Source: an uncultured SAR324 cluster bacterium (GTDB lineage Bacteria; SAR324; NAC60-12). Taken from it: a DNA stretch of 64,000 bases. The stretch spans positions 586,054 through 650,053 of the forward strand of contig CAJJCY010000003.1 in NCBI GenBank assembly GCA_905182865.1, in the 5' to 3' direction. Position 1 is the stretch's first letter; every line of letters begins with the position of its first letter. Both the position numbers and the translations under genes were made by a program. This document shows, in pieces, positions 6,523 to 51,138 of the stretch. Under the pieces are notes generated by a model that was not told where the DNA came from, did not search any database, and saw only the letters and a list, made by a program, of their open reading frames with translations.

Positions 6523-7293
6523 TTAGATATCCGCATCACGGTTCATATCTTTGCTGTAGATGTACCATAGCGGTTCACGCCCGGTGGTATAGGCAGCTTG
6601 CTGGGTGAACGGTCCAAACCAGATAAAATCTTCCTTCTGCACCGACAACCATTCATCACCAAGCAAGTAAAGACCTTGTCCGCCAAGCAGATAGGCACCA
6701 TGTTCCTGAACATGAGTTTCCACGAAAGGATGACAGCCGTCAGGCATAAATTTGAGCGTATGCATATTCATGTCGAACTCCAGATCATTGGGCAATAAAT
6801 CACGCAGAAATACATTGTCCATTTCATCATAAATGTTCTCTTCAATCTTGTTGATGTCTCCAAAAACGATCCATGGTTTCAGGTCACCCAAAGGGACATA
6901 ACGTTGTTTGTACAGTAGAACACGAACTGACTCAGAAGACGAGTTTTCAAATTCAATGCCTGTATCCGGTGGTGCAAACGCATAACCTCCGGCCTTTAAT
7001 TTTTCGGTTATGTCTCCGACACGAACCTTAAGTTCACCGTCCCCATCCATTACAAACAGGAAGGTCTCAACTCCTGGAGCCTCAACGAATGGAACTAATG
7101 TTTTTCCTCCTGCTTCAACGCTTCCGACATACTGTACAAAGCTTGCGCCGTGTTTTGGTGAGGCGATAATCGTAAGTTTGCATCCCTCAAAACCGGGGAT
7201 GGAATTAATAACCCTCCCTTCTGGAGGAATGATAGTAAAGATTCCGGGTTTTATAACGGCTCGACTTTCAAGAAATCCTTTTGGGTACGGCAT
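6523..7293 (-). CDS. allE: (S)-ureidoglycine aminohydrolase (bicupin, YlbA/AllE family)
   Basis: The 256-aa ORF has the length and two-cupin layout of AllE/UGlyAH (…FVETHVQEHGAYLLGGQGLYLLGDEW…), in a ureide-operon context. Confidence 0.8.
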   Translation of the reverse strand: MPYPKGFLESRAVIKPGIFTIIPPEGRVINSIPGFEGCKLTIIASPKHGASFVQYVGSVEAGGKTLVPFVEAPGVETFLFVMDGDGELKVRVGDITEKLKAGGYAFAPPDTGIEFENSSSESVRVLLYKQRYVPLGDLKPWIVFGDINKIEENIYDEMDNVFLRDLLPNDLEFDMNMHTLKFMPDGCHPFVETHVQEHGAYLLGGQGLYLLGDEWLSVQKEDFIWFGPFTQQAAYTTGREPLWYIYSKDMNRDADI

Positions 7294-7471
7294 ATTATTT
7301 TATCCTTATATTTGGTTTATGTCCCTCAACAGAAAAAAATATTTAAAGGACTGTGGTTTACTTTATATTAATGATTTGCGCAATTATCATGGTCTAAAAA
7401 GGTAGACTTCACATTCCGAATAATAGGTTCTATTAGCGTGATAACTTGAAATTCAGGTATCAAAAAATCCA

Positions 7472-8110
7472 TTAATTTGGAATAGCATCAAGGAATTCCT
7501 GGTAGTAAGGTCGTCTAAATTCCTTGAGAAGGTGTTCAAGTTCAGAAAGCGGATCTTTGTTGTCATCCACTCTGAGATGGCAAAATGGAAAGGGTTGATT
7601 TTTAATCGTCAATAGTGCAGCCGATTGCCTGCCACGAACATCTCCTCCGACAGCTTCTCCTGCTTTAAGTGCTCGCAACAACCTCTCCTCAATTGGTTCG
7701 TCCTTCTTAGATTTTATTACTTCAAAGCATGCTTCTAGTACTTGTTCCCCCACGAGCATATTTCCCGCCAAGCTGAAATTTTTTCCACATTTATGTCCTG
7801 ACCATTCTACAGTATCTTTGCCTGTCCAGGCCCAAGCATTCCCTGACACGTCTACACCATGCAACTGTCTTGAATCTTTGGCGGGATCTTCTTTTAAAGC
7901 TGCCAAAAGCGAATCCTTCAGGGAATAACCGCTAGCCATTTTTTCCAATCCTTTTAACCCCAGATATGGATTGGTTGCCGCTTGCGTCGCTATTGCCCCT
8001 ATACCTGACTTTAAGTGTGGGACAAGTGCTCCTACAGCAAAATGACATGTAGCCACAGCAACTCCTAGTGTTTTCGACTTTGGATCACACATTACGATAG
8101 AGAAAGTCAT
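7472..8110 (-). CDS. DUF1028-family protein (Ntn-hydrolase-like fold)
   Basis: The 212-aa ORF begins MTFSIVMCDPKSKTLGVAVATCHFAVGALVPH..., the characteristic DUF1028 N-terminus (M-T-F-S-I) as I recall the family. It is the first gene of the minus-strand ureide operon. Confidence 0.7.
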   Translation of the reverse strand: MTFSIVMCDPKSKTLGVAVATCHFAVGALVPHLKSGIGAIATQAATNPYLGLKGLEKMASGYSLKDSLLAALKEDPAKDSRQLHGVDVSGNAWAWTGKDTVEWSGHKCGKNFSLAGNMLVGEQVLEACFEVIKSKKDEPIEERLLRALKAGEAVGGDVRGRQSAALLTIKNQPFPFCHLRVDDNKDPLSELEHLLKEFRRPYYQEFLDAIPN

Positions 8111-8605
8111 TTTTTTTCTAATTGGAATTTAGATATATTATTACCAGTGTCCCAAGGAAAAATTAATTATTCTCAGTAACTATTTGAAAACACAAATTTG
8201 TATGCAGTTTATGTTTAGTCCTTGAGGCTATAGTCAAAAAACGGCTAGAAATAGAGACTTCACCATACAATATTCTCAAGTTATTGAGTCTTCTCAGTAT
8301 TTGAAAAAACATTAATTCAGTTGCTTGATAAATAAATAATAACTTAAGGCAATAACTTAGGGACATTAGAGAGAATTTCAACTTTTTTAAGATGATTCTA
8401 AGCTTTTACAAAATTTTAAGAATCATCATATCATCTATTAATACAAAAATATTTTAAATTAAAAACTTGTAAGGCAATTTAATTTTTATGATAATATGCC
8501 TAAATTTTATTATAACCTTATTACTGGAGCTAAAAGGTAAAATTATATATATTTAATTCAAAATATAGGAATCTCTATTTTTTAACTTTTTTCAGGAGGA
8601 TTAAG

Positions 8606-10152
8606 ATGAAGATAATTAACTTTAAATCAACGCTTATCATGCTATATTATTTGCATGTTTTTGTCATCTTTTGCTCAAGCAAAAGATATTATTTGGGCTC
8701 GTTATGGTGATATTGATACACTTGACCCACATAGAGCCACGAGCACTTTGTCTTTACAGGTGTGGGGCCTTATTTATGATACCTTGCTGGCGACTGACAA
8801 GGATGGGAATGCCGTACCACACTTGGCTAAGTCTTGGGAAGTCTAATTCAGATGGGACTGAATATACTTTTGTCGCTGAATAAAGGGTCTAAGTGTCATG
8901 ACGGGACCGCAATGGATGCAAATGATGTTAAATATACTGTAGAAAAAGCTTTCAGTAAATCTAGTCCAAGTTTGACAAAAGGCAGTTGGGGGCCAATTAC
9001 TAAGGTTGAAGTTCTCAATCCACTAACTGTAAGCTTCCATCTTAAGACACCATTTGTTGCACTTATTTCATTTCTTGCTGACAGTTTTTCGTCAATTATT
9101 TGCGACTCTAATAAAGGTAAATCAGGTTTTGGTACAAGCGCAGCGATTGGATCTGGGCCATGGAAATTTGTCTCATGGACCAAAGGCGACAGGATAGTTT
9201 TAAAGAAAAATCCTAATTTTAAGAATTTTGGTAAATTGCCAAAAAATCCAGGGGCCCCTTATATGGATGGTCTTGTAATAGCGGTAGTTCCTGAACCACA
9301 AGCACGTCTGGCGGCACTCAAAACCGGTGAAGTACATATAGCTGAACCACCATTTGATGATGTCCAGGCCCTTAAGGATTCTGGAGCGCTTAAAATTATG
9401 GTTGCAGAAAATACTGGACAAAATGTTTTTTGGGAATTTGCTGCACACAGGCCACCTTTCAACGATAAACGTGCTCGATTAGCAGTAGGCCATGCCACAG
9501 ATCCAGAAACAGCTATTAATTTGATTTATGGTGATCTTTCTATGACGGAGGCGTGCCCAGTTTCTAGGGGCGTTTTTGGTAATGACCAAGAGTTTTGCTT
9601 AAAGTATAGGCCAAATTACAATCCTGAAAAAGCCAGGGCATTGCTAGCAGAAATTGGATATGGTCCAAGCAATCCACTTGAAACAACAATGATTGTATGG
9701 ACCGGTGGTAATCGCCCAAAACTTGCTGAAGTTTTTCAATCACAACTTGCTGAAGTGAATATAAAAGCAAATATTGAACCATTATTGGTTCTATAATGTA
9801 ATTTTGAAAAATGAAAATAAAACAAGTAAAAATGTTGAGCATGGATATGATGACATGGTCATGGTACGATCCTGATATCCTTTATGCTTTGTGGCATTCT
9901 CCGGGCGCTTATCGGGGATATACTACACCAGGACTTGATGCGATGTTAGAAAAAACTAGAGTCTTAAGCAATAAAGATGAACGAAAAGCGCTTGTTCAAG
10001 ATGTATTCAAGCATCTTCTCGAAAATGGTGTTCACATTCCTCTTTATACTCCTGGGTGGGAATGGGTTTTTGCAGTCCGACCGGAGGTAAAGGGATTCAT
10101 TGTTGCCCCTTTTGTCTATCCAACGTTCAATGATGTTAGGATAGAGAATTAG
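8606..10152 (+). pseudogene. Family-5 (Dpp/Opp/Nik-type) periplasmic substrate-binding protein, disrupted by at least 5 frame changes
   Basis: GGAGGA at 8595-8600 precedes ATG 8606 (MKIINFKSTLIMLYYL...). The coding signal then hops frames: near 8650 (…FLSSFAQAKDIIWARYGDIDTLDPH), near 8844 (…AKSWEV|NSDGTEYTFV), near 8872 (|LNKGSKCHDGT…), near 9785 (…NIKANIEP|…NVEHGYD) and near 9845 (|MDMMTWSWYDPD…). Each hop is +1. Confidence 0.75.
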
Positions 10153-10168
10153 TTTATAAATTATACTT

Positions 10169-10204
10169 GAACGGGGTCTGGAAAACAGCCCCCGTTCATT
10201 TTTC
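10169..10204 (+). terminator. Rho-independent terminator candidate after the binding-protein gene
   Basis: GAACGGGG (10169-10176) pairs with CCCCGTTC (10190-10197), with a 13-nt loop, followed by ATTTTT. Confidence 0.6.
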
Positions 10205-10331
10205 ATCTTCTAAACCCACCTTTACATTTCAATTACAAAGGTTGAATAAATAGCCCTTTTTACCTAATAATTGATGATTAAACATTAATCCTGCATTAAT
10301 TTTATAAAAAATATTTTCAAGACTTGAAATA

Positions 10332-11243
10332 ATGATTCGTTTCCTCTTAGGAAAAATTGTAATGGCTTTTCTCACTGTTTTCATTACAACCATGATTGAA
10401 ACTTCATATCATGGTAATCCAAACCTAAAACCAGTAGGATATCAACACGATTTTACTCCTGAACAAATTGAAGAGGTACGTCGTAATCTTGGACTCGATA
10501 AACCAATTTATGTTCAATATTTCATGTATATTGAAAAGCTATTTCAAGGAGATTTAGGTTATACCATTCGAGGTGGACAACCGGTTATTCAAGTCATTTT
10601 TCAAAGGTTACCAAACACAATTATGCTCGCATGTGCAGCAATGATTATTGCTATTGGTATTGGCTTACCGATTGGTTTTTTTGCCGCATACAAGAAAGGC
10701 ACAATTTGGGATACATTTGTAATGATTATTGCTATTGCAGGTATTTCCATGCCTCATTTCTGGTTAGGATTAATACTTCTTTTCTTCTTTGCAGTGGAGC
10801 TTGGGTGGCTTCCAGTAAGTGGTAGTGGATATATGAATCTTATCCTACCTGCCTTGACTTTGGGCCTATCAAATGCAGCTATTATTGCACGTTTAACTAG
10901 GTCATCCATGATTGATGTAATGCAGCAAGATTTTGTACAGACTGCTTTGGCTAAAGGACTTCCTAAAGGGCTTGTTTTAAGGCGTCATGTTTTAAGAGCT
11001 GGACTAGTACCACTAATCACAATGATGGGTTTGCAATTTGCCTTTATGATGGGAGGTGCAATAGTAGTTGAAAACATTTTTTCGTGGAATGGGGTTGGAA
11101 GAATGGCTGTAGAGGCAATTTTTCAAAGAGATTACCCAATCATACAAGGTTTTATCCTAACTTTCGCAGTGGTTGTAGTAATTGTATCAATATTTTTGGA
11201 TACTATTTATGCTTTTATTGATCCTCGAATTCGAAGGAGCTAA
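10332..11243 (+). CDS. ABC transporter permease (DppB/OppB-like)
   Basis: 303-aa ORF. It is polytopic, with a LGLDKPIYVQY block and the binding-protein-dependent permease layout. Confidence 0.85.
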   Translation: MIRFLLGKIVMAFLTVFITTMIETSYHGNPNLKPVGYQHDFTPEQIEEVRRNLGLDKPIYVQYFMYIEKLFQGDLGYTIRGGQPVIQVIFQRLPNTIMLACAAMIIAIGIGLPIGFFAAYKKGTIWDTFVMIIAIAGISMPHFWLGLILLFFFAVELGWLPVSGSGYMNLILPALTLGLSNAAIIARLTRSSMIDVMQQDFVQTALAKGLPKGLVLRRHVLRAGLVPLITMMGLQFAFMMGGAIVVENIFSWNGVGRMAVEAIFQRDYPIIQGFILTFAVVVVIVSIFLDTIYAFIDPRIRRS

Positions 11244-11257
11244 AGGGAATATCCAAT

Positions 11258-12130
11258 ATGTCTGAAAAATTGAAGAGCGAAGAGTTAAAGACTAAAAACC
11301 AATCATTTTTCATAAGGCTATTGTCTACACCTAATGGTTTCATAGGCTTAACGATTGTCATCATACTTATACTATCTGCAGGATTTGCCGATTTTTTGGC
11401 TCCTTTTTCTCCAACAAAAATGATGGTTGGGAACCGATTCCTTCCTCCGAATTTAGAATTTATTTTGGGTACAGATGAGTTTGGAAGGGATATGGTCTCT
11501 CGTATTTTATTTGGTAGTCGATTGACCTTGATGATTGGCGCCATAGCAGTTGGGATTTCTATGACAACCGGAATAATGATCGGCCTTTTTGCCGCTTATA
11601 AGGGTGGTTGGCTAGAAATTTTACTGATGCGAAGCACAGATATTCTTTTTTCGTTTACAGAAACGCTTATTGCTCTTTCTTGTGTTGCTGTTTTAGGGCC
11701 AAGTTTAACCAATGCTGTTATAGCCGTTGGTATTGCGGGGATCCCATTTTATGCTCGGACCTGCTATTCTGCTGCTTTAGTTGAGAAATCCAAACCTTAT
11801 TTTGAAGCAAGTATCGCATGCGGAGCAAGTCATTCTAGACTTGTTTTCATGCATCTGTTACCAAATGTTTTACCTACAATGATTGTTATTTCAACTTTAG
11901 GTGTATCTACTGCAATTTTGGCAGCAGCAGGCTTAAGTTTTCTTGGACTTGGCGCTCAACCTCCACTTCCTGAATGGGGGTATATGCTTGCAGGTTCAAG
12001 AGATTATATTAACCGTGCACCATGGTTAATGACTATACCAGGTGTTGCAATTGCCTTAACAGTTCTTGGTTTTAATCTTTTAGGTGACGGATTTAGAACA
12101 GTTCTCGACCCTGTAGAAAGGCAGAGATGA
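11258..12130 (+). CDS. ABC transporter permease (DppC/OppC-like)
   Basis: 290-aa ORF with ILGTDEFGRDMVSRILFGSR, typical of DppC/OppC. It overlaps the ATPase start by 4 nt. Confidence 0.85.
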   Translation: MSEKLKSEELKTKNQSFFIRLLSTPNGFIGLTIVIILILSAGFADFLAPFSPTKMMVGNRFLPPNLEFILGTDEFGRDMVSRILFGSRLTLMIGAIAVGISMTTGIMIGLFAAYKGGWLEILLMRSTDILFSFTETLIALSCVAVLGPSLTNAVIAVGIAGIPFYARTCYSAALVEKSKPYFEASIACGASHSRLVFMHLLPNVLPTMIVISTLGVSTAILAAAGLSFLGLGAQPPLPEWGYMLAGSRDYINRAPWLMTIPGVAIALTVLGFNLLGDGFRTVLDPVERQR

Positions 12131-13804
12131 ATGAGTCTATAATTCTTTCAGTTAATAACTTGAATGTTAGCATTAAATCTAAAGGAATCGTATCTCAAAT
12201 TGTACATGATTTGTCGTTTGATGTTAACAGAGGTGAAATTTTATCCATAGTTGGTGAATCTGGTTCAGGAAAAAGTATGACGGCTAAAGCTATTTTGGGA
12301 TTATTACCTGAAAATAGTTCTGTTAGTGGCAAAGTTATGTTTCAGGGTCGCAATCTACGCGACTTGAACGACGAACAAGATGCGCAAGATGTCCGGGGTG
12401 CAAAGATTGGTATGATTTTTCAAGAACCTATGACTTCTTTAAATCCAGTATTTACATGCGGAGATCAAGTAATGGAAGCAATTGTTCTTCATCAAAAATT
12501 AAATACTAAAGATGCTAAATTATGTTGGCATCCGTGAGCCTGAAACTCGGCTTGGGGCCTATCCGCATCAGCTTTCAGGTGGTCAGCGGCAACGCATTAT
12601 GATTGCCATGGCCCTTGCCAACCGCCCGGATGTCTTGATTGCCGATGAGCCGACAACGGCTCTGGATGTGACTATTCAGGCGCAGATTTTAGAATTATTG
12701 GCTGAGTTGAAAGTCTCAGAGGGGATGGGTCTTTTGTTCATCACCCATGATCTGGCGATTGTGCGCCGGATTGCCGATCGGGTCTGTGTGATGAAAGACG
12801 GTGAGATCGTCGAGACTGGCAGCACGGCAGCGATTTTTGCAAATCCGCAACCCTATACAAAATCTTTACTGGCAGCTGTACCGCGTTTAGATGTTAAAAC
12901 ATTTAAAAATGAATCTTTTACGAAAACTTCAACAATTCCATTAGTAACAATAAATCGTGTATCTAAAACGTTTACAAATAATAAATATTTATTCTTTGAT
13001 GGTTGGAAAACTAATGCTCTAAATGAAGTAAGTCTTGAAATTAATTATGGAGAAACAGTTGCTTTAGTTGGGGAAAGTGGCTCTGGGAAATCAACACTTG
13101 GGAGAGCAATAGTTAAACTAGTAAATATAGATTCTGGAAATATTGTAATTGATAGTTCAAATATTAATTCACCAAATTCTAATGATTTACGTAAGCTCCG
13201 ATCAAATGTTCAGATAATTTTTCAAGATCCCTATTCATCGCTTGATCCCAGATTTTCAGTCGGTAGAAGTATTGCAGAACCAATTCTAATTCAAAAAAAA
13301 TGTAGTCGATCAGAAGTAAAAGATAGGGTGTCAATTCTTTTAAAGAGTGTTGGTTTAAATAATGAAATGGCAAGCCGTTATCCACATGAATTTTCTGGAG
13401 GTCAACGTCAACGTGTAGCTATAGCAAGGGCTCTTGCATCTGAACCGAAATTTATCGTAGCTGATGAGCCGACATCGGCTCTAGATGTAACCATACAAGC
13501 ACAAATACTTGAACTATTGATTAACCTTAAAAAAGAGCTTCATAAGACAATTGTTTTTATTACTCATGACCTTGATGAGGCAATCCGGATCGGACACAGG
13601 ATAGCAATAATGAAAGACGGTATAATTGAACAACTAGATACTGTTTTAGGAAATCCTCATAACGCTTATACAAAATCTTTACTTGACGCGGCGCCTTATC
13701 CCGATCCGGAGAAAAGGAAAAAATTAAAAAGAAAAAGTGATTTAAAATCATTTAATACGGGGCCACTAATTGAAATATCACACAATCATTGGGCAGCATC
13801 ATAA
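12127..13804 (+). pseudogene. Fused double-ATPase (DppD+DppF-like) ABC component, split by a +1 frameshift near 12500-12515
   Basis: ORF 12127-12537 carries Walker A (GESGSGKS) and ends …HQKLNTKDAKLCWHP*. ORF 12512-13804 continues in the next frame with (I)LKMLNYVGIREPETRLGAYPHQLSGGQRQR…, then a second full ABC domain (GESGSGKST … FSGGQRQR … ADEPTSALD). Confidence 0.75.
12526..12888. other. GC-rich patch inside an AT-rich ATPase gene (compositionally foreign segment)
   Basis: Hand counts: 12601-12660 = 37/60 GC, against 23/60 at 12241-12300 and 14/60 at 12901-12960. The peptide ALDVTIQAQILELL is encoded twice in the gene with different codon usage: gatgtgactattcaggcgcagatt in the patch, and gatgtaaccatacaagcacaaata in domain 2. 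Confidence 0.7.
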
Positions 13805-13922
13805 AATAGTGATTGATTCCTAATTCTGTCCTTGTTTTAAGAATTATCAAATTTTTTAAAATTGTACAGCAAAAAACAATGTTAAACAGGATCATCCAAG
13901 TATTTATTACTTTCTCCGATAA

Positions 13923-13949
13923 GCCGATGGAGTTTTCAACTCCTTCGGC
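13923..13949. terminator. Hairpin between convergent genes (possible bidirectional terminator)
   Basis: GCCGATGGAGTT-TTC-AACTCCTTCGGC forms a 12-bp stem with one mismatch. There is no clear U-tract on either strand. Confidence 0.35.
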
Positions 13950-13986
13950 AGTTAGATAACGTTGTAAATTATGTATATTAAATTAT

Positions 13987-14895
13987 TTAATTTGTTGAGT
14001 GGTGTTTGTGCCAGTGTCGGGCTATGTCGATGCGGCGGCACAGCCAGACATCAGCATGGCTGCTTACATAATCAATAAATTTTTCCAAAGAGGCGGTGCG
14101 TCCGGGCCGACCGGTCAGTCGGCAGTGCAATCCGATACTTAACATTTTTGGGGAGGCTTCACCCTCGGCATATAGCACATCAAACGCATCCCGAAGATAT
14201 GCAAAAAACTGCTCTCCTGAATTAAAACCCTGTGGGCTGGCAAAGCGCATATCGTTGGTGTCCAGAGTGTAGGGAACCACCAAATGAGGATCTCCTGCAG
14301 GGGTTTCTACCCAGTAAGGCAAATCGTCCGCATAAGAATCGGCATCGTATAAAAACCCTCCGACTTCCTGTACCAAACGCTGAGTGTTGGAACTAGTGCG
14401 CCCGGTGTACCAACCCAAAGGTCTGCTCCCCGTAACACGGGTATGGATATCAATGGCTTTTGCCATATGTTCACGCTCGATGTCTTCGGGTATATTTTTG
14501 TAATCAATCCAGCGATAGCCGTGAGACGCAATTTCCCAATCGGCTTGCAGCATGGCCTCAACAGCTGCCGGATTACGTTCCAGAGCCATAGCGACACCGA
14601 AAATTGTCACTGGAATATTCCGGCTTGTGAAAAGACGATGGAGTCGCCAAAATCCGGCCCTGCTTCCATATTCGTAGATTGATTCCATGCTCATGTGTCG
14701 TGCACCTGTGAAGGGTGGCGCGCCGATGATTTCGGAAAGGAATGTTTCGGATGCAGGGTCTCCGTGGAGGATACAGTTTTCTCCTCCTTCCTCATAATTG
14801 ATGACAAATTGGAGGGCAATCCTGGACTTCTCGGGCCACTCAGGATGTGGAGGTTTTTGGCCGTAGCCAAGCATGTTGCGGGGATAATGTTCCAT
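13987..14895 (-). CDS. puuE: Allantoinase, PuuE type (polysaccharide-deacetylase fold)
   Basis: 302-aa ORF with RNMLGYGQKPPHPEWP…IALQFVINYEEGGE…ASHGYRWIDY…LSIGLHCRLTGRPGR, matching PuuE as I recall it. Confidence 0.85.
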   Translation of the reverse strand: MEHYPRNMLGYGQKPPHPEWPEKSRIALQFVINYEEGGENCILHGDPASETFLSEIIGAPPFTGARHMSMESIYEYGSRAGFWRLHRLFTSRNIPVTIFGVAMALERNPAAVEAMLQADWEIASHGYRWIDYKNIPEDIEREHMAKAIDIHTRVTGSRPLGWYTGRTSSNTQRLVQEVGGFLYDADSYADDLPYWVETPAGDPHLVVPYTLDTNDMRFASPQGFNSGEQFFAYLRDAFDVLYAEGEASPKMLSIGLHCRLTGRPGRTASLEKFIDYVSSHADVWLCRRIDIARHWHKHHSTN

Positions 14896-14992
14896 GTTAT
14901 TTCAAAAAAATAATTAGCTATATTTGGATTCCAAAATACAAAGATAAACTTAAAGTCACTTACAACATAAAATTTAATCTCTTATAAAATTT

Positions 14993-16198
14993 ATGGACTC
15001 CTATATTATCGAATGGTTAAATCTGGTTGTCCGCTGGATTCATGTAATTACAGGAATTGCCTGGATTGGTGCTTCATTTTTTTTCAATTGGCTGGACAGT
15101 CAACTCATTCCGCCGGAAAATCCGCAACCTAAAGTGGAGGGCGAGTTGTGGATGATACACAGTGGGGGTTTTTATCAATTGAAAAAAACGATGATCTCAC
15201 CCTCCGAAATCCCAAGAGTTCTGCATTGGTTTAAATGGGAAGCTTATTCGACTTGGATCAGCGGTATTTTCCTGCTCGGAATTGTGTATTACACTGGTTC
15301 CGGAGTTTATTTGATTGATTCAGAAATCGCAGATTTAAGTTATGGAATGGCGGTTAGTATCAGCTTGGGAACGATTTTGGTGTCTTGGTTAATTTATGAT
15401 TTTATTTGGGCTTCTGCTTTGAGTGAGAAAGGCTGGATTATAGGGATGATTTCCTTTTTGCTTTTGTTTGGAATTATCTGGTGGTTTCATCAATGGTTTG
15501 GCTCACGTGCCGCTTACATTCATGTCGGGGCGGTCATGGGAACCTTAATGGTGGGCAATGTATGGCGGCGTATCATCCCCTCACAAACCAAACTGGTGGA
15601 AGCAGTCAAAGCTGGGAAAACTCCGGAAGCTTCTCTGGGAATAAAAGCAAAACAACGCTCTTTACATAATAATTACATGACCTTGCCTGTCGTGTTCATT
15701 ATGATCAGCAACCATTTCCCAAGCACTTTTGCGCATTATTATAATTGGGCGATTTTGATAGCGATAATAGTGATTGGAGCCACCGTACGCCACTTCTTCA
15801 ATCTCAAAAATAAAGGGCATTTGAATGTTTGGATTTTGCCAGTGGCCATGGCAGCAATTTTTGCACTTATTTATGTGACGAAACCGGATGCCACGATTTC
15901 AAATTCACCGGACACGGTTACATTTGGAACAGAGCATATTCCGTATGCCCTGGTGCGCACCATTTTGGATCAGCGTTGTGTGAGTTGTCATTCTTCAAGG
16001 CCTACCGATGACGTTTTCAGAATTGCTCCCAAAGGCATTATGTTAGATAATAACGAAAGAGTTCATGCACTGGCAACCCTCATTAAAATTCATTCAGTTA
16101 CGACAATTGCTATGCCGCTAGGAAATAAAACCGGAATGACACACGAAGAGAGGGTTATTCTTGGAAGATGGGTTGACGAAGGTGCATCCATCAAGTGA
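14993..16198 (+). CDS. puuD: Membrane urate hydroxylase PuuD (cytochrome c-containing)
   Basis: 401-aa polytopic ORF. N-terminus is WLNLVVRWIHVITGIAWIGASFFFNWLD, and the C-terminal domain has a CVSCH haem-c motif. Confidence 0.8.
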   Translation: MDSYIIEWLNLVVRWIHVITGIAWIGASFFFNWLDSQLIPPENPQPKVEGELWMIHSGGFYQLKKTMISPSEIPRVLHWFKWEAYSTWISGIFLLGIVYYTGSGVYLIDSEIADLSYGMAVSISLGTILVSWLIYDFIWASALSEKGWIIGMISFLLLFGIIWWFHQWFGSRAAYIHVGAVMGTLMVGNVWRRIIPSQTKLVEAVKAGKTPEASLGIKAKQRSLHNNYMTLPVVFIMISNHFPSTFAHYYNWAILIAIIVIGATVRHFFNLKNKGHLNVWILPVAMAAIFALIYVTKPDATISNSPDTVTFGTEHIPYALVRTILDQRCVSCHSSRPTDDVFRIAPKGIMLDNNERVHALATLIKIHSVTTIAMPLGNKTGMTHEERVILGRWVDEGASIK

Positions 16199-16242
16199 AT
16201 TAAAATCTTTATACAATCAAAATAATTTCAAAGGAGTAACTA

Positions 16243-16587
16243 ATGAGTCCTATCACTACCCATGTACTTGATACCTCTCAAGGCTGTCCGGGAGCAAATA
16301 TACGGATACGCTTAGAACAACAACAATCTGACAAAACCTGGCAGGAAATAGCGTCTGGATCGACAAATTCTGACGGGCGGATTGCGAATTTGATTCAGGA
16401 AGATGAGATGATTAATTCGGGAGTTTATCGGATGCTTTTTGAGACAGGTCCCTATTTTGAGCAGCAGGGAACAGCTTATTTTTATCCAGAAATTGAAGTT
16501 CGTTTTTTACTCAATCATACGGAGCAGCATTATCACATTCCGTTGCTGTTGAGTCCGTTTGGTTACAGCACATATCGGGGAAGTTAA
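16243..16587 (+). CDS. uraH: 5-hydroxyisourate hydrolase (transthyretin-like)
   Basis: 114-aa ORF with ITTHVLDTSQGCPG and HYHIPLLLSPFGYSTYRGS. The C-terminal YRGS is the HIUase signature. Confidence 0.9.
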   Translation: MSPITTHVLDTSQGCPGANIRIRLEQQQSDKTWQEIASGSTNSDGRIANLIQEDEMINSGVYRMLFETGPYFEQQGTAYFYPEIEVRFLLNHTEQHYHIPLLLSPFGYSTYRGS

Positions 16588-16623
16588 CAGTAACGCAGAA
16601 ACTGGTATTTCTCACAAAATAAA

Positions 16624-17130
16624 TTATGCGTCTCTCAGCATTTTATTAAGCCGCAAATTTGTAATTTTCATTTGTTCACCAGTTGCAATCTTTAGTTCTG
16701 TTTCCGGAGAATTCTCCAGCCGAGTCCGGAGCAGTTCCAGCATTTCCGATGCGCTTTTTCCCGTGGCGCAGACGATAAATATGTAACCGAATTTTTCTGC
16801 ATATTTTTGATTTTCGGTTTTCAATTTCAATTTTGTCTGCTCATCTGCGGACATCATTCCGGCTTGTTCTTTGCTCGTCCAGCTTTCCGTATTTTTTGCA
16901 TTATCCGGAGGTTTACTGGCACCAATTTTTGGATGAGCAGCAAAAGCCTCCAAATAATCGACTTCTCCCAAATCAGACCAAATTTGACCTGCCAACTCCA
17001 ACAGATGTGATACTGACTTGTAAGGCCGAACTGCTAACATTTTTTCAGTCCATTGGCTGGAACTGCAACATTTAAGCAGTTCAATATGTGCCTGTTTGAT
17101 ATCACAATGGTTCAAATCTTCTAAATTCAC
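16624..17130 (-). CDS. uraD: 2-oxo-4-hydroxy-4-carboxy-5-ureidoimidazoline (OHCU) decarboxylase
   Basis: 168-aa ORF with EAFAAHPKIG…SKEQAG…YAEKFGYIFIVCATGKSASEML, typical of UraD/PucL. Confidence 0.85.
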   Translation of the reverse strand: MNLEDLNHCDIKQAHIELLKCCSSSQWTEKMLAVRPYKSVSHLLELAGQIWSDLGEVDYLEAFAAHPKIGASKPPDNAKNTESWTSKEQAGMMSADEQTKLKLKTENQKYAEKFGYIFIVCATGKSASEMLELLRTRLENSPETELKIATGEQMKITNLRLNKMLRDA

Positions 17131-17188
17131 GAAGTTCCTTTAGATAAAAAATGTGCTGTGCTGTTTTAAATAATTTTTCTGGAAAAGA

Positions 17189-18163
17189 TTAAAAAAAGAA
17201 GGTGGAACTTAGTTCCCAATGGTTTGCAATAGGGGCGTTTTGTCCGTCAAGTGGGCGAGTGTAACCCAGGCGGACTTGCCATGGAGTAGAGAGTGGTTTT
17301 TGCTCAAGGTCACTCAGGTTACCGTAACCGAATTCAAAATTTATTTCTTTAAGAAAAGCAGCATTAGATTTACCTGTTGGCAAACTGCTCTCTGCCTGTT
17401 GGTAATAATGCAGTTCTGTGCCGGCAAATATATTTTGCCTCTCAATACTCCAGTTGTAGAAAAGGTCTGCGCGATTCCCTGCAGAGTAATATACTTTTTC
17501 TCCATCAAGTGTTTCACGTTTGCCAACCAGTTCATTTGTACCTTCTATCCTGAATGCATTCCGAATCCCGTGTGTCAGAGGATACCAATTAAATTGAAAA
17601 TAGGCACCTACTGAGCCATGGCCCTCTCCGGTTGAATTTGTAGAAATACCGCGGGGAGTCCCAGTTGTACCTGTAGGCAGTCGCAAAGTGTAGCCGCCGC
17701 GATTATGCCAGGTCGTAGTCGTAACTATATCTTTGGCAAATATAAGCTTGATATCACCAGGTCCACTTAGATTTTCTGAAGCCAAATTTTCGAGAACTTT
17801 CTGCTGAATAGCTGTAGCAGATTCAATTTTGAGAGTAGAGGTTTGTTTTTTTTGCAGTAAAGGTATAATTGCCTCCAGCATCCACTTTTCAGTAAGACCG
17901 TATGCAATACGGATTTCAAGTCTCTGCTCTTCACGCTGCAACTTACCAACGACCGAATCTCGCCATTCTCTGTCCCAGAGCATGAGTTGCTGCAAAGGTG
18001 CTTCTTCTCCATAACCATTAAAAGCTCGATCGTAAACTGGGGTATGCTGCAAACGCATTTCGACCTCCCAGACTGATTTCGGTAAGCGGCTTTCAAGCTC
18101 AATGGCGTGTGTTGGCGTTGGAATCAGGAATACTGTAACGAGAATTAAAAAATAATACTTCAT
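17189..18163 (-). CDS. Outer-membrane beta-barrel protein of unknown function
   Basis: 324-aa ORF with a signal peptide (MKYYFLILVTVFLIPTPTHA), alternating beta-strand-like pattern and a C-terminal …STFFF. Its start overlaps the maf stop. Confidence 0.6.
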   Translation of the reverse strand: MKYYFLILVTVFLIPTPTHAIELESRLPKSVWEVEMRLQHTPVYDRAFNGYGEEAPLQQLMLWDREWRDSVVGKLQREEQRLEIRIAYGLTEKWMLEAIIPLLQKKQTSTLKIESATAIQQKVLENLASENLSGPGDIKLIFAKDIVTTTTWHNRGGYTLRLPTGTTGTPRGISTNSTGEGHGSVGAYFQFNWYPLTHGIRNAFRIEGTNELVGKRETLDGEKVYYSAGNRADLFYNWSIERQNIFAGTELHYYQQAESSLPTGKSNAAFLKEINFEFGYGNLSDLEQKPLSTPWQVRLGYTRPLDGQNAPIANHWELSSTFFF

Positions 18164-23490: not shown

Positions 23491-24906
23491 TTAGTTAACA
23501 GAAGAGATTTCTGCAATTGCATCCATTTCAACATCTGCTCCTTTTGGCAAATTACTTACTTCTACACATACCCGTGCGGGTTTAGAATCATCAAAATATT
23601 CTGAGTATATTTCATTTAACTCACCAAATTGAGCCAGATTTTTCATGTAAATTGTTACTTTCAGTACATGTTTCAATCCCGAACCTCCTGCTTCCAGAAT
23701 TATTTTAAGATTTAAAAGTACCCGGTGACATTGTTCTGCAAACGAATTGCCAACCATTTCTCCACTCTCAGGATCAACGTCCTTAAATATGAAAAAATTA
23801 CCTTCTTCGTCTTTACCTAACTTCATACGGGTGCAGGCGCCTTTGATGTTTTGATAATTGAACGTGACATTATTTGGTTTACTCAGAAAATTATTTATCA
23901 ATTTTTCAATATCACTACCAAGATCAGTTTTAGATTTAACTTCATCTCTCAAATAAATTTCGTTATATTGATTTATATTACCAAAAAATAAAGTTTTGTT
24001 GCCATTAATTATCATTGGCTTGTCAGTATACTTTGCTGACCACTGGCACAAAGGTTCTTTGTTTTCAAAACACTTATTCATTGCATGGATTGCGAGTGGA
24101 TGGAAAATATCTACACCTGCATTATCCAGTAATGTCAACATTTTATTAAGATCTTTGGGCTTGAATCCATCATCAATTTTATCAAAGATGGAAAAGTAAT
24201 AACTAAGTGGAATTTTGATAGAATCACGGTTCTTGATAGAGTTAACTACATCCAGTGCCAGTTGCACACGATTCTCAATTTTTGCTGAACCATATTCGTC
24301 ATCACGATTGTTAAGTTTTTTACTACAACATTGATCCAGCAATTGTTGTTCAGTTCCATTTATTTCAATAAAATCCATACCGGCTTCTTCTGCCCGTTCA
24401 GCAGCATGCACAAAATTGAGTACAATTTCTTCAACATCACCTTGATCGAATTCACGGCTGATGTCAAAATCTCGACCAAAATTCATCATAGAAGGCCCCA
24501 CAGGCTGTTCGTCACAAGTACTTTCAGAAGTCTGTGCACCTGCATGACTGAGACGGATTCCGATAGTGGCACCCTCTTTTTTTACACCCTGGGCTAATTT
24601 TTCCAAACCCTCAAGATGCTCTTCATTTGAAATTCCCAGCTGGTTGACGTGACTTCGCCCCTGCTTTGTCACATAGGCAGACTCCACAATTATCGTACCT
24701 GCACCTTGCCGTGCTAAAGAACGGTAGTGTTTGATTATTGCCAGTGTTACTTTGCCATGTACATCCGCGTGATCGTCCACTGTTGGCGGTGCAAGGATAC
24801 GATTCGGGGACTGAATTCCTTTAACTTTAAAGGGCTGAAAAACGGAAGCGATTTTTGACTGAGCATTTTTTTCTGAAATTGAACTAGATTTTGATACGGA
24901 AGGCAT
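23491..24906 (-). CDS. Fusion protein: degenerate Old-Yellow-Enzyme-like TIM-barrel domain plus C-terminal RidA/YjgF domain
   Basis: 471-aa ORF. The N-terminal ~300 aa are OYE-like (FQPFKVKGIQSPNRILAPP…, IGIRLSHAGAQ, …RDDEYGSAKIENR). The C-terminal ~120 aa are RidA-like (…VLKVTIYMKNLAQFGELNEIYSEYF…PARVCVEVSNLPKGADVEMDAIA). Confidence 0.7.
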   Translation of the reverse strand: MPSVSKSSSISEKNAQSKIASVFQPFKVKGIQSPNRILAPPTVDDHADVHGKVTLAIIKHYRSLARQGAGTIIVESAYVTKQGRSHVNQLGISNEEHLEGLEKLAQGVKKEGATIGIRLSHAGAQTSESTCDEQPVGPSMMNFGRDFDISREFDQGDVEEIVLNFVHAAERAEEAGMDFIEINGTEQQLLDQCCSKKLNNRDDEYGSAKIENRVQLALDVVNSIKNRDSIKIPLSYYFSIFDKIDDGFKPKDLNKMLTLLDNAGVDIFHPLAIHAMNKCFENKEPLCQWSAKYTDKPMIINGNKTLFFGNINQYNEIYLRDEVKSKTDLGSDIEKLINNFLSKPNNVTFNYQNIKGACTRMKLGKDEEGNFFIFKDVDPESGEMVGNSFAEQCHRVLLNLKIILEAGGSGLKHVLKVTIYMKNLAQFGELNEIYSEYFDDSKPARVCVEVSNLPKGADVEMDAIAEISSVN

Positions 24907-39948: not shown

Positions 39949-40469
39949 TTATAGTGTGCTCTCTAAAGAATTGGTTAGTATCTTTAATGGAAGTACTTCA
40001 ACATAAGGAATGATCCAGTTCGGAAAGTTGTGGTAACTGAAAAATATTCCGGAAAGGATGAACATTGGCAGGGTCACGTTGTTAATCAAGCCGTTGCCGC
40101 TTTGCGTATTTTCTGCTCGGGATGAAATGAGAACGGCAATTCCGGCAAAAGTTCTGTATCCACTCACAAAAATTAAAGACAACGCCAGCAGACTCCCCTG
40201 AATTGTAATATCAAAAAAAAGTGTACAAAAACGTAAAGCAAAAGCAGTTCTGCGGCACTGATAAACATGCGGTTCAAACCGTGTGAGAGTAGTAGAACTG
40301 ACTTCTTTAGTTGAGTGGCAACCATCCGGCGTAGCAAATTTTTGATACGTAACTCAATTAAATTCCATCCGATTCCCCACAAACATGCATTCATGATGGA
40401 AATGGCCGAAATTCGATTATCTTTGTCTTCGGCTGTCATAACGTAAAGTCCATAAGGAATCATCCGCAA
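39949..40469 (-). pseudogene. ABC-2-type permease relic (C-terminal two-thirds, frameshifted; no partner ATPase)
   Basis: ORF 40173-40469 has …LWGIGWNLIELRIKNLLRRMVATQLKKSVLLLSH…. ORF 39949-40182, in another frame, has …SRAENTQSGNGLINNVTLPMFILSGIFFSYHNFPNWIIPYVEVLPL…. Together they are colinear with YadH-like ABC-2 permeases. Frames upstream to ~40660 are broken. Confidence 0.6.
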
Positions 40470-49319: not shown

Positions 49320-51138
49320 ATGAATAAAATAATGGAGTGGACAAGGACGCATTATTGTGGTGATTTGAGGACAGAGAATGTTGACCAGGAGGTCGTATTA
49401 ATGGGCTGGTGTCAAACCCGGCGCGATCATGGAGGAGTGATTTTTGTGGATTTACGGGATTACACTGGTATCAGCCAAATTGTCTTCAAAATGGAAATCA
49501 GTGAAACCTCACATGTTTTAGCAGATTCAATTCGTGGTGAGTTTGTTTTGGCAGTAAAAGGAAAGGTTGCACACCGTATAGAAGGCAACGTAAATCCAAA
49601 ATTGCCAACCGGCGAAATTGAAATTATGGTGGAGACTTTGGAAATTCTCAACAAATCTGAAACACCACCCTATGTTTTGGAGAATCGTGAAAATGTGGAT
49701 GAAAAATTAAGGCTCACTTACAGATTTCTTGATTTGCGTGATTCCACTTTGCAGAATAATTTAATGCTGCGTTCGAAGTCCTTGCAAATTGTCCGGAATT
49801 ACTTCATAAGTCAGCGCTTTTTTGAGATTGAAACTCCGATACTGACAAAATCTACTCCTGAAGGCGCACGTGATTATCTGGTGCCTTCAAGAGTCAATCC
49901 CGGACTTTTTTTCGCATTGCCCCAATCACCGCAACTTTTCAAGCAGTTACTGATGATCAGCGGTTATGACCGCTACATGCAGCTTGCCCGTTGTTTTCGT
50001 GACGAAGATTTGCGTGGAAACCGTCAACCGGAATTCACTCAAATTGATTTGGAATTGAGTTTTACTGAACCGGAAGAGATATATAAGCTGACAGAAGGTT
50101 TGATGGTTAAGCTGTTTGAAGAAACCATAAGTGTAAAAGTCGAAACGCCTTTCCAGCGCATGACGTATCAGGAGTCGATGGAAAACTATGGTTCCGATGC
50201 TCCTGATATCCGTTTTGATTTAAAGCTCAAAGATATTTCTGACATTGCCTCTGAATGTGAATTACGTGTTTTCAAACAGGTGGTGGACAAGGGCGGGATA
50301 GTAAAAGCTATTTGTGTACCTGGCGGAGCAGATTTTTCGCGTAAAGATCTCGATGACCTGACAGAATTCGCTCAAATTTATGGGGCAAAAGGTATGGCTT
50401 GGATCAAACGTAACCAGGACGGTTGGCAGTCGCCTATCGGTAAGTTTTTCACTTCCGAACAAAAAGATGCACTGGAAGAGAGAGTCGGTTTAAATGTAGG
50501 AGATCTAGTGTTGTTCTGTGCTGACAATACAAAAGTTGTTCATGATGCACTCGGTAATTTGCGAAAAGAAATTGCGCTACGTCGAGGTTTGATAAACAAC
50601 AGCGAATATCGTTTTGTCTGGGTTACAGATTTTCCTCTCTTTGAGTATAGTGAAACTGAAAAAAGTTTTTCCTCCAGCCACCATCCTTTCACCATGCCGG
50701 ATATAGATGATTTGGAAAAATACGGAGAGCAGTATCCTGAAAAAATCCGCTCAAGGGCCTATGATGTAGTATTGAACGGAGTTGAAATTGGTGGTGGATC
50801 AATTCGTATTCACAACCCAGAGATCCAACAAAAAGCATTCAAGGCTCTTGGCCTGAGTGAAGAGGAAGTTGAACAATAAATTTGGTTTTCTGATGAAAGC
50901 ACTTTCTTATGGTGCTCCGCCCCATGGTGGTATTGCTCTGGGCTTTGATCGTATAATGATGTTTTTGCTAAAAACAGATTCGATACGTGACGTGATTGCA
51001 TTTCCTAAAACTCAAAAAGCCGGCTGCTTAATGACTGATGCACCCTCTGAAGTTGAAACAGAGCAACTTGATGAACTCCATATCAGGGTCAAGGCTTTGG
51101 CTCAGCAGACTGAGAAGTTAGAACTTGCTGAAAAATAA
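49320..51138 (+). CDS. aspS: Aspartate--tRNA ligase (bacterial type), reading frame interrupted by one extra base at 50877
   Basis: ORF 49320-50879 ends …[13 protein letters not shown] 50857-51138, in the next frame, continues …[30 protein letters not shown]… (class II motif 3). Deleting T50877 restores …EEVEQKFGFL…. Confidence 0.85.

Follow-up and report, generated by a model that had tools for sequence, protein, structure and literature searches.

A GC-rich patch in the peptide-importer ATPase gene of a SAR324 genome and its probable origin as an in-silico chimera with a rhodobacterial yejF

In the genome assembly of an uncultured SAR324 cluster bacterium (GCA_905182865.1), the ATPase gene of a peptide-type ABC importer is frameshifted and contains, next to the frame break, a patch that is much richer in GC than the remainder of the gene. 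Such a patch raises the question whether it reflects recombination with a gene from another organism, gene conversion within the genome or an error in the assembly. The window, that is, the whole stretch of DNA analysed here, comprises 64,000 nt (G000:C3:586054-650053). The assembly G000 measures 3.23 Mb in 5 contigs, has 41% GC and is about 86% complete. No Rfam match to an RNA gene or structured element was found anywhere in the window.

Composition and reading frame of the ATPase gene

The affected gene is the last one of an AT-rich operon for a peptide-type ABC importer, which further consists of genes for a binding protein and two permeases (Table 1). It is split into two overlapping ORFs of 136 and 430 aa, as compared to 569 aa in the intact native allele, and relative to this allele it has a net deficit of 23 nt between 12340 and 12858. 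The frame is broken at about 12495-12523, just 5' of the GC-rich patch, where a first-pass annotation made from the sequence had also placed it. This position corresponds to the 3' end of a distinct segment, referred to as segment A.

The step in composition on which that annotation was built is real. When calculated over intervals of 120 nt, the GC content is 0.52-0.56 across 12520-12880 and 0.23-0.37 on either side, a discontinuous profile. The reported count of 37 G or C residues among the 60 nt at 12601-12660 was reproduced, and the flanks, given as 23/60 and 14/60, contain 22/60 (12421-12480) and 14/60 (12901-12960). For the block 12524-12859 as a whole, GC is 0.536 (0.54 for 12524-12851) and GC3 is 0.55, against 0.31 and 0.21 in the N-terminal part of the gene and 0.33 and 0.13 at 12860-13516. 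The z-score of the block, taken against the composition of the ATPase gene itself, is about 7.6. Genome-wide, GC is 0.41, with a 99th percentile of 0.53 for intervals of 360 nt, and the native allele has a GC of 0.40 and a GC3 of 0.31 over the same stretch as the block. The peptide ALDVTIQAQILELL is indeed present in both ABC domains and is encoded by different codons in each.

The earlier description needs to be corrected in two respects. A GC-rich patch does lie within the proposed extent of 12490-12888, but the exact foreign block covers 12524-12851 only and is preceded by an aberrant stretch that begins at about 12340. Furthermore, another block, which the annotation had missed, is found in domain 2 of the same gene (~13534-13640), and the patch is one of many in the window.

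Table 1. Positions in the window of the ATPase gene, of the aberrant blocks and of the landmarks at the joins
Feature	Position	Strand	Basis or remark
Binding-protein (SBP) gene, aberrant block (-4, -7, +1 nt) that splits the gene	9784..9836	+	comparison with L024 and L121
Permease 1 gene, in-frame block (-12 nt) replacing native LIHLVPGDP	10377..10484	+	comparison with L024 and L121
Fused double-ABC ATPase gene (Dpp/Opp/GsiA type)	12127..13804	+	split into ORFs 12127-12537 and 12512-13804
Segment A, OppD/DppD-like coding sequence, neither native nor from the yejF donor	12340..12523	+	alignments to L024 and L121
GC-rich patch, verbatim 328-nt yejF block, domain 1 Q-loop to H-loop	12524..12851	+	100% identity to L122-L126
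23-nt exact identity of native and donor genes, TTGATTGCCGATGAGCCGACAAC, Walker B LIADEPTT	12635..12657	+	only identity of at least 20 nt between the two genes
Right junction, 4-nt microhomology CAAC	12848..12851	+	donor ends ...CCGCAAC, native resumes CCTATAC
ABC domain 2 block, glycine betaine/proline ProV/OpuAA type, encodes ELHKTIVFITHDLDEAIRIGHRIAIMKDG	13534..13640	+	alignment to L024
Two assembly-specific blocks, OYE/RidA	23760-23840 and 23905-24000	-	L107, L108, L109 and L111 agree against the window
Assembly-specific aspS block, +1 nt	50799..50878	+	window discordant with six independent scaffolds that concur

The native allele, the donor and the joins between them

Within the genus, only genome G008 has an orthologue of the ATPase gene. 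It is intact, encodes 569 aa and has 74% identity. Compared to the window, this orthologue is about 88% identical over most of its length and looks unrelated at three stretches; thus a mosaic pattern is apparent, but G008 is too distant to set exact borders for the blocks. Much closer references exist among metagenome contigs. An ENA contig of 6.1 kb (L024) carries the whole operon in an intact state, with a binding protein (SBP) of 517 aa, permeases of 307 and 290 aa and an ATPase of 569 aa, and the same 569-aa protein is encoded by a Logan contig (L025). Aligned with 8076-14305 of the window, L024 has 99.8-100% identity over hundreds of bases, broken by sharply bounded blocks at 9784-9836, 10377-10484, ~12340-12858 and ~13534-13640 and in the intergenic region 5' of the operon. 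A JGI contig of 10.3 kb (L121), corresponding to 7212-17667, also has the native sequence and the same synteny; it is 98.7% identical outside the blocks and picks out the same ones.

Outside the aberrant stretches, the gene in the window has ~99-100% identity to the intact native allele. This 569-aa allele is common worldwide. Its cluster (P0121) numbers 54 members, which were found on dozens of JGI, Tara, ENA and Logan contigs, and all of the related full-length proteins, at least 20 in number, have the native sequence in the region of the block. The 430-aa ORF that includes the patch occurs once, in this record. A 31-mer specific for the chimera does not occur among 241 million JGI metagenome records, in which the native junction is present, and neither the chimeric ORF nor its junction was found in any other assembly searched.

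In independent samples, too, the AT-rich operon is flanked by the ureide operon and puuE (L121, L024). Therefore, it is native and conserved in the population rather than a recent insertion. In comparison to both native references, the spacer that separates the DUF1028 and SBP genes contains about 170 nt of additional AT-rich DNA in the window (8196-8340). The intergenic region 8170-8590 was considered as a block and rejected, since the two references also differ mutually (8440-8590) and the difference is at least in part natural variation.

As to the patch itself, all of its 328 nt are identical to a yejF gene that is present on five independent contigs (L122-L126) from JGI (3300045300, 3300009505) and ENA samples (ERZ27250700, ERZ23498653, ERZ1896707). 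These contigs have 53% GC and contain a yejABEF-like operon, encoding an SBP_bac_5 protein, two BPD_transp_1 permeases and the ATPase. Apart from one codon gap, the peptide encoded by the block matches P0362, P0366 and P0367 in 112/112 aa. These proteins are members of one 90%-identity cluster, which is named in its source as microcin C transport system ATP-binding protein of Rhodobacteraceae or Paracoccaceae, with a sister cluster from Marinovum sp. The early protein matches, Rhodobacteraceae ATPases of the YejF type, were 82-91% identical. In a scan of genome contigs with the block peptide, the exact donor is not among the matches listed, which include relatives of 60-85% from Tropicimonas, Ruegeria and Sulfitobacter. 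The YejF-type identity of the block follows both from the protein identity and from the yejABEF-like operon. Judged by its sequence, the block is a fragment of yejF, a microcin-C-type ABC ATPase gene, from marine pelagic Rhodobacteraceae/Paracoccaceae unrelated to the host. The suggestion that the patch derived from a homologue in a GC-richer genome is thereby borne out, with a donor genome of about 53% GC. The 7.6-kb donor locus is represented in G000 by the homologous 328 nt only and is otherwise absent.

Donor and recipient proteins are built alike. YejF, which belongs to the YejABEF microcin C/peptide importer, and the GsiA/DppDF-type proteins are both fused double ABC_tran plus oligo_HPY ATPases of peptide-type importers, and the part of domain 1 that the block replaces comprises the Q-loop, signature motif, Walker B and H-loop. 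However, the donor YejF has 534 aa and is encoded in a 53%-GC Rhodobacteraceae operon, whereas the recipient, which comes from an unrelated lineage, has 569 aa and is encoded in an operon of 35% GC. Over the replaced stretch, the donor and native genes are about 63% identical and the proteins about 62%.

Other sources of the block were considered as well. Contamination with E. coli or other laboratory DNA was rejected, as E. coli genes of the gsiA/yejF type reach no more than 67-70% identity to the block. A consensus of a mixed population had been proposed on the basis of DNA matches of 85-90% and was dropped for this block after the donors with 100% identity had been found. Gene conversion within the genome, with a paralogous gene for an ABC ATPase as the source, could have drawn on the many such paralogues in this genome, which have conserved motifs in common. 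However, the best match to the patch in its own genome is 74% over 132 nt, and no donor for any of the other blocks was found in the assembly, which covers about 86% of the genome. Moreover, the exact donor was found in another organism, and G008 and the native alleles of the population do not have the block. The probability of such a conversion is therefore close to nil.

The joins are informative with respect to mechanism. In homologous recombination, crossovers fall in identical stretches. The only identity of at least 20 nt between the native gene and the donor is the 23-mer in the Walker B region, and this lies inside the block, 111 nt from its left border and 194 nt from its right border. 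The junctions themselves have 0-4 nt of homology. At the right junction one donor codon is lost (NPQHPYT becomes NPQPYT), while on the left side the block abuts segment A, which is another non-native piece. Crossovers in donor/recipient identity, as a mosaic made by homologous recombination or gene conversion needs, were thus not found. With the identity internal and the borders devoid of homology, the arrangement is the opposite of that produced by homologous recombination, and it is what would be expected from foreign reads that are seeded on a conserved word and extended outward.

It could still be imagined that a Roseobacter yejF fragment of 328 nt was really, and very recently, integrated at the homologous position by horizontal replacement, through illegitimate or microhomology-mediated recombination in a strain in which the operon is decaying. 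The donor is real, marine and co-occurring, and the ENA assemblies behind the donor and native contigs have similar accession ranges (ERZ272xxxxx/ERZ273xxxxx). Furthermore, other lesions in the operon, such as 1-nt insertions in the SBP gene, would fit a pseudogenised locus that is free of selection. Against this speak the junctions without homology, with the sole identical stretch internal, the zero divergence in the block and the flanks alike and the absence of the allele from every other sample. Natural mosaic genes that arose through interspecies homologous recombination are, for example, penA of Neisseria and pbp2x and pbp2b of Streptococcus. In these mosaics the frame is kept, the crossovers lie in regions of identity, the donors are typically about 5-25% divergent and the alleles are common to related isolates. 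The ATPase gene resembles them in having a block of foreign composition, derived from another species, in an otherwise native gene. Unlike in these mosaics, its frame is broken, its junctions are without homology, donor and native genes are only about 63% identical and the allele is private. There is no donor above 74% in the same cell, the allele is not found among relatives in common and the product is not in frame.

Further blocks in the operon and elsewhere in the window

Segment A, which abuts the yejF block, shows a net loss of 20 nt against the native sequence (+3, -12, -11). No donor for it was found in the genome itself, and none that is close among the representatives of 50%-identity clusters, a coarse library in which the best match was 82% at the amino acid level. 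In ABC domain 2, the block has 9 nt less than the native sequence and keeps the frame. Among 5.8 billion proteins, the best relatives of the peptide that it encodes are all ProV/OpuAA ATPases, which form a different ABC family. It is identical over 29 aa to the JGI protein P0240, while the DNA is 80% identical and all 19 differences are synonymous. The block is, therefore, genuine coding sequence that stems from a further organism. This block contains a 21-mer that is common to the native gene. The ATPase gene alone thus harbours three or more blocks of different origin, including this non-orthologous piece of ProV type.

The blocks in the SBP and permease 1 genes look garbled rather than foreign, and no recognisable homologue was found for the sequence that replaces the native one in permease 1. 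The SBP gene also has single-base insertions at 8645, 8841 and 8872, none of them in a homopolymer, which add further breaks with respect to two intact 517-aa references. These insertions and the garbled block, set against intact references, indicate that much of the apparent decay of the operon is private to this assembly.

The phenomenon is not confined to the operon. A comparison of about 48 kb of the window with 13 independent contigs revealed eight or more private blocks, and every block in a coding region occurs in this assembly alone. Between 19.8 and 55 kb, the window has 99.0-99.8% identity to eleven independent scaffolds, which derive from seven sample sets, and all of these scaffolds together are discordant with it at 23760-23840, 23905-24000 and 50799-50878. 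Through the second of these blocks, the OYE gene loses its stop codon and becomes fused to the RidA gene. In all four references the two are separate genes, encoding 344 aa (OYE) and 130 aa (RidA). On these alignments, the 471-aa OYE-RidA fusion ORF (23491-24906) is evidently an artefact. The third block is a GC-richer, consensus-like fragment of an AspRS gene, and it truncates aspS to 519 aa as compared to 578 aa in the references. As aspS is present in a single copy in G000 (an assembly that is about 86% complete), a cell in which it is broken in this manner should not be viable.

These findings also bear on the idea of a horizontal replacement. It would need several independent imports within 5.5 kb, from different donors and including the non-orthologous ProV piece, and the disruption of the only aspS by an equivalent block would be incompatible with viability. 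Altogether, a genuine replacement of the yejF stretch must be regarded as quite improbable. Slightly less probable still is the more general proposal that all of this is physically real, with recent and repeated replacements of 50-330 nt from unrelated co-occurring bacteria (Roseobacter yejF, ProV type) that are independent of homology yet keep the register. If it were true, this would amount to a form of short-patch homeologous replacement that is so far undescribed.

Origin of the blocks and consequences for the use of the genome

A chimera could also have arisen physically in vitro, by template switching with contaminating Roseobacter DNA during whole-genome amplification or library PCR, and then have been assembled faithfully. 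The right junction, with microhomology only (CAAC), is reminiscent of template-switch chimeras, and donor and recipient occur in the same kind of sample. However, a random switch would not lead back, 328 nt later, to the homologous codon of the native gene, and such switches would have to be repeated at homologous positions in several genes. This keeping of the register points to an alignment-guided computational step rather than to template switching, which has only a slim chance of being the cause.

On the strength of the sequence comparisons, the patch is very probably an inter-species chimera generated in silico, that is, an assembly error and not biology. The block is identical to a Rhodobacteraceae yejF gene and its flanks are 99.8-100% identical to the native L024, and the join is confined to one assembly that has other defects, including one in the indispensable aspS. 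Direct observation covers the two parent sequences, the fact that the chimera is unique, the anatomy of the junctions and the multiplicity of the blocks; the responsible software step is what we infer. Parents without divergence, register-keeping joins without homology, several donors within 5.5 kb, a broken essential gene and a private allele argue together for a computational step that is guided by alignment. Some points stand against this. Classical de Bruijn chimeras have a single switch at a shared k-mer and do not return in register to the native gene, which makes it necessary to assume a step guided by alignment. Some of the small blocks (9784-9836, 10377-10484) look garbled rather than foreign, and with an assembly that is about 86% complete, there is a small chance that a second aspS or a donor within the genome escaped detection. 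Among the possibilities that the first-pass annotation had left side by side, the chimeric join or artefactual splice is thus favoured over natural gene conversion, given the private allele, the junctions without homology, the further blocks and the broken single-copy aspS.

In detail, at the stage of assembly, gap filling or consensus polishing, 328 nt of the native gene would have been overwritten with yejF sequence from an abundant co-occurring member of the Rhodobacteraceae. This sequence would have been recruited to the native gene by means of the shared Walker B 23-mer. At the end of the foreign alignment, the consensus would have returned to native sequence with its register slightly off, by which a codon was lost at the right junction. 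This lost codon, combined with the second aberrant piece upstream, would account for the deficit of 23 nt and for the frameshift. The same process would have produced the other foreign or garbled blocks in the operon and those in the aspS, OYE and RidA genes. In general terms, sequences of abundant community members would overwrite conserved stretches of a rarer genome in an alignment-guided computational step, for which polishing, local reassembly, gap filling and a consensus drawn from mis-recruited reads are candidates.

Interspecies chimeric contigs and misassemblies have been described in metagenome-assembled genomes (MAGs), with metaMIC and DeepMM among the tools that address them, and conserved regions are a known cause of such joins (bioRxiv 10.64898/2026.10.15.759294). 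Like these chimeras, the present one joins sequence of a co-occurring organism inside a contig at a conserved region, is missed by marker-based quality scores and yields genes that are discordant with references. It differs from them in being a short internal block of 328 nt that returns to the native sequence at the homologous position. Whereas the classical case consists of one junction followed by kilobases of foreign sequence, several blocks are found here in a single assembly.

The native gene is that of an ordinary, intact peptide-importer ATPase, and the patch would be without biological importance. The blocks do matter for the use of the genome. The assembly represents its species in a one-genome-per-species collection, and the blocks escape standard quality scores. 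They lead to false pseudogenes, such as a "decaying" ABC operon and a broken aspS, to false gene fusions, such as OYE-RidA, and to false signals of horizontal transfer. Unusual features of this genome should therefore first be checked against near-identical metagenome contigs, which are plentiful.

Finally, small insertions are present in the window at 40373 (T) and 54778 (CA) in comparison to most of the scaffolds that cover these positions; they may be further consensus errors.
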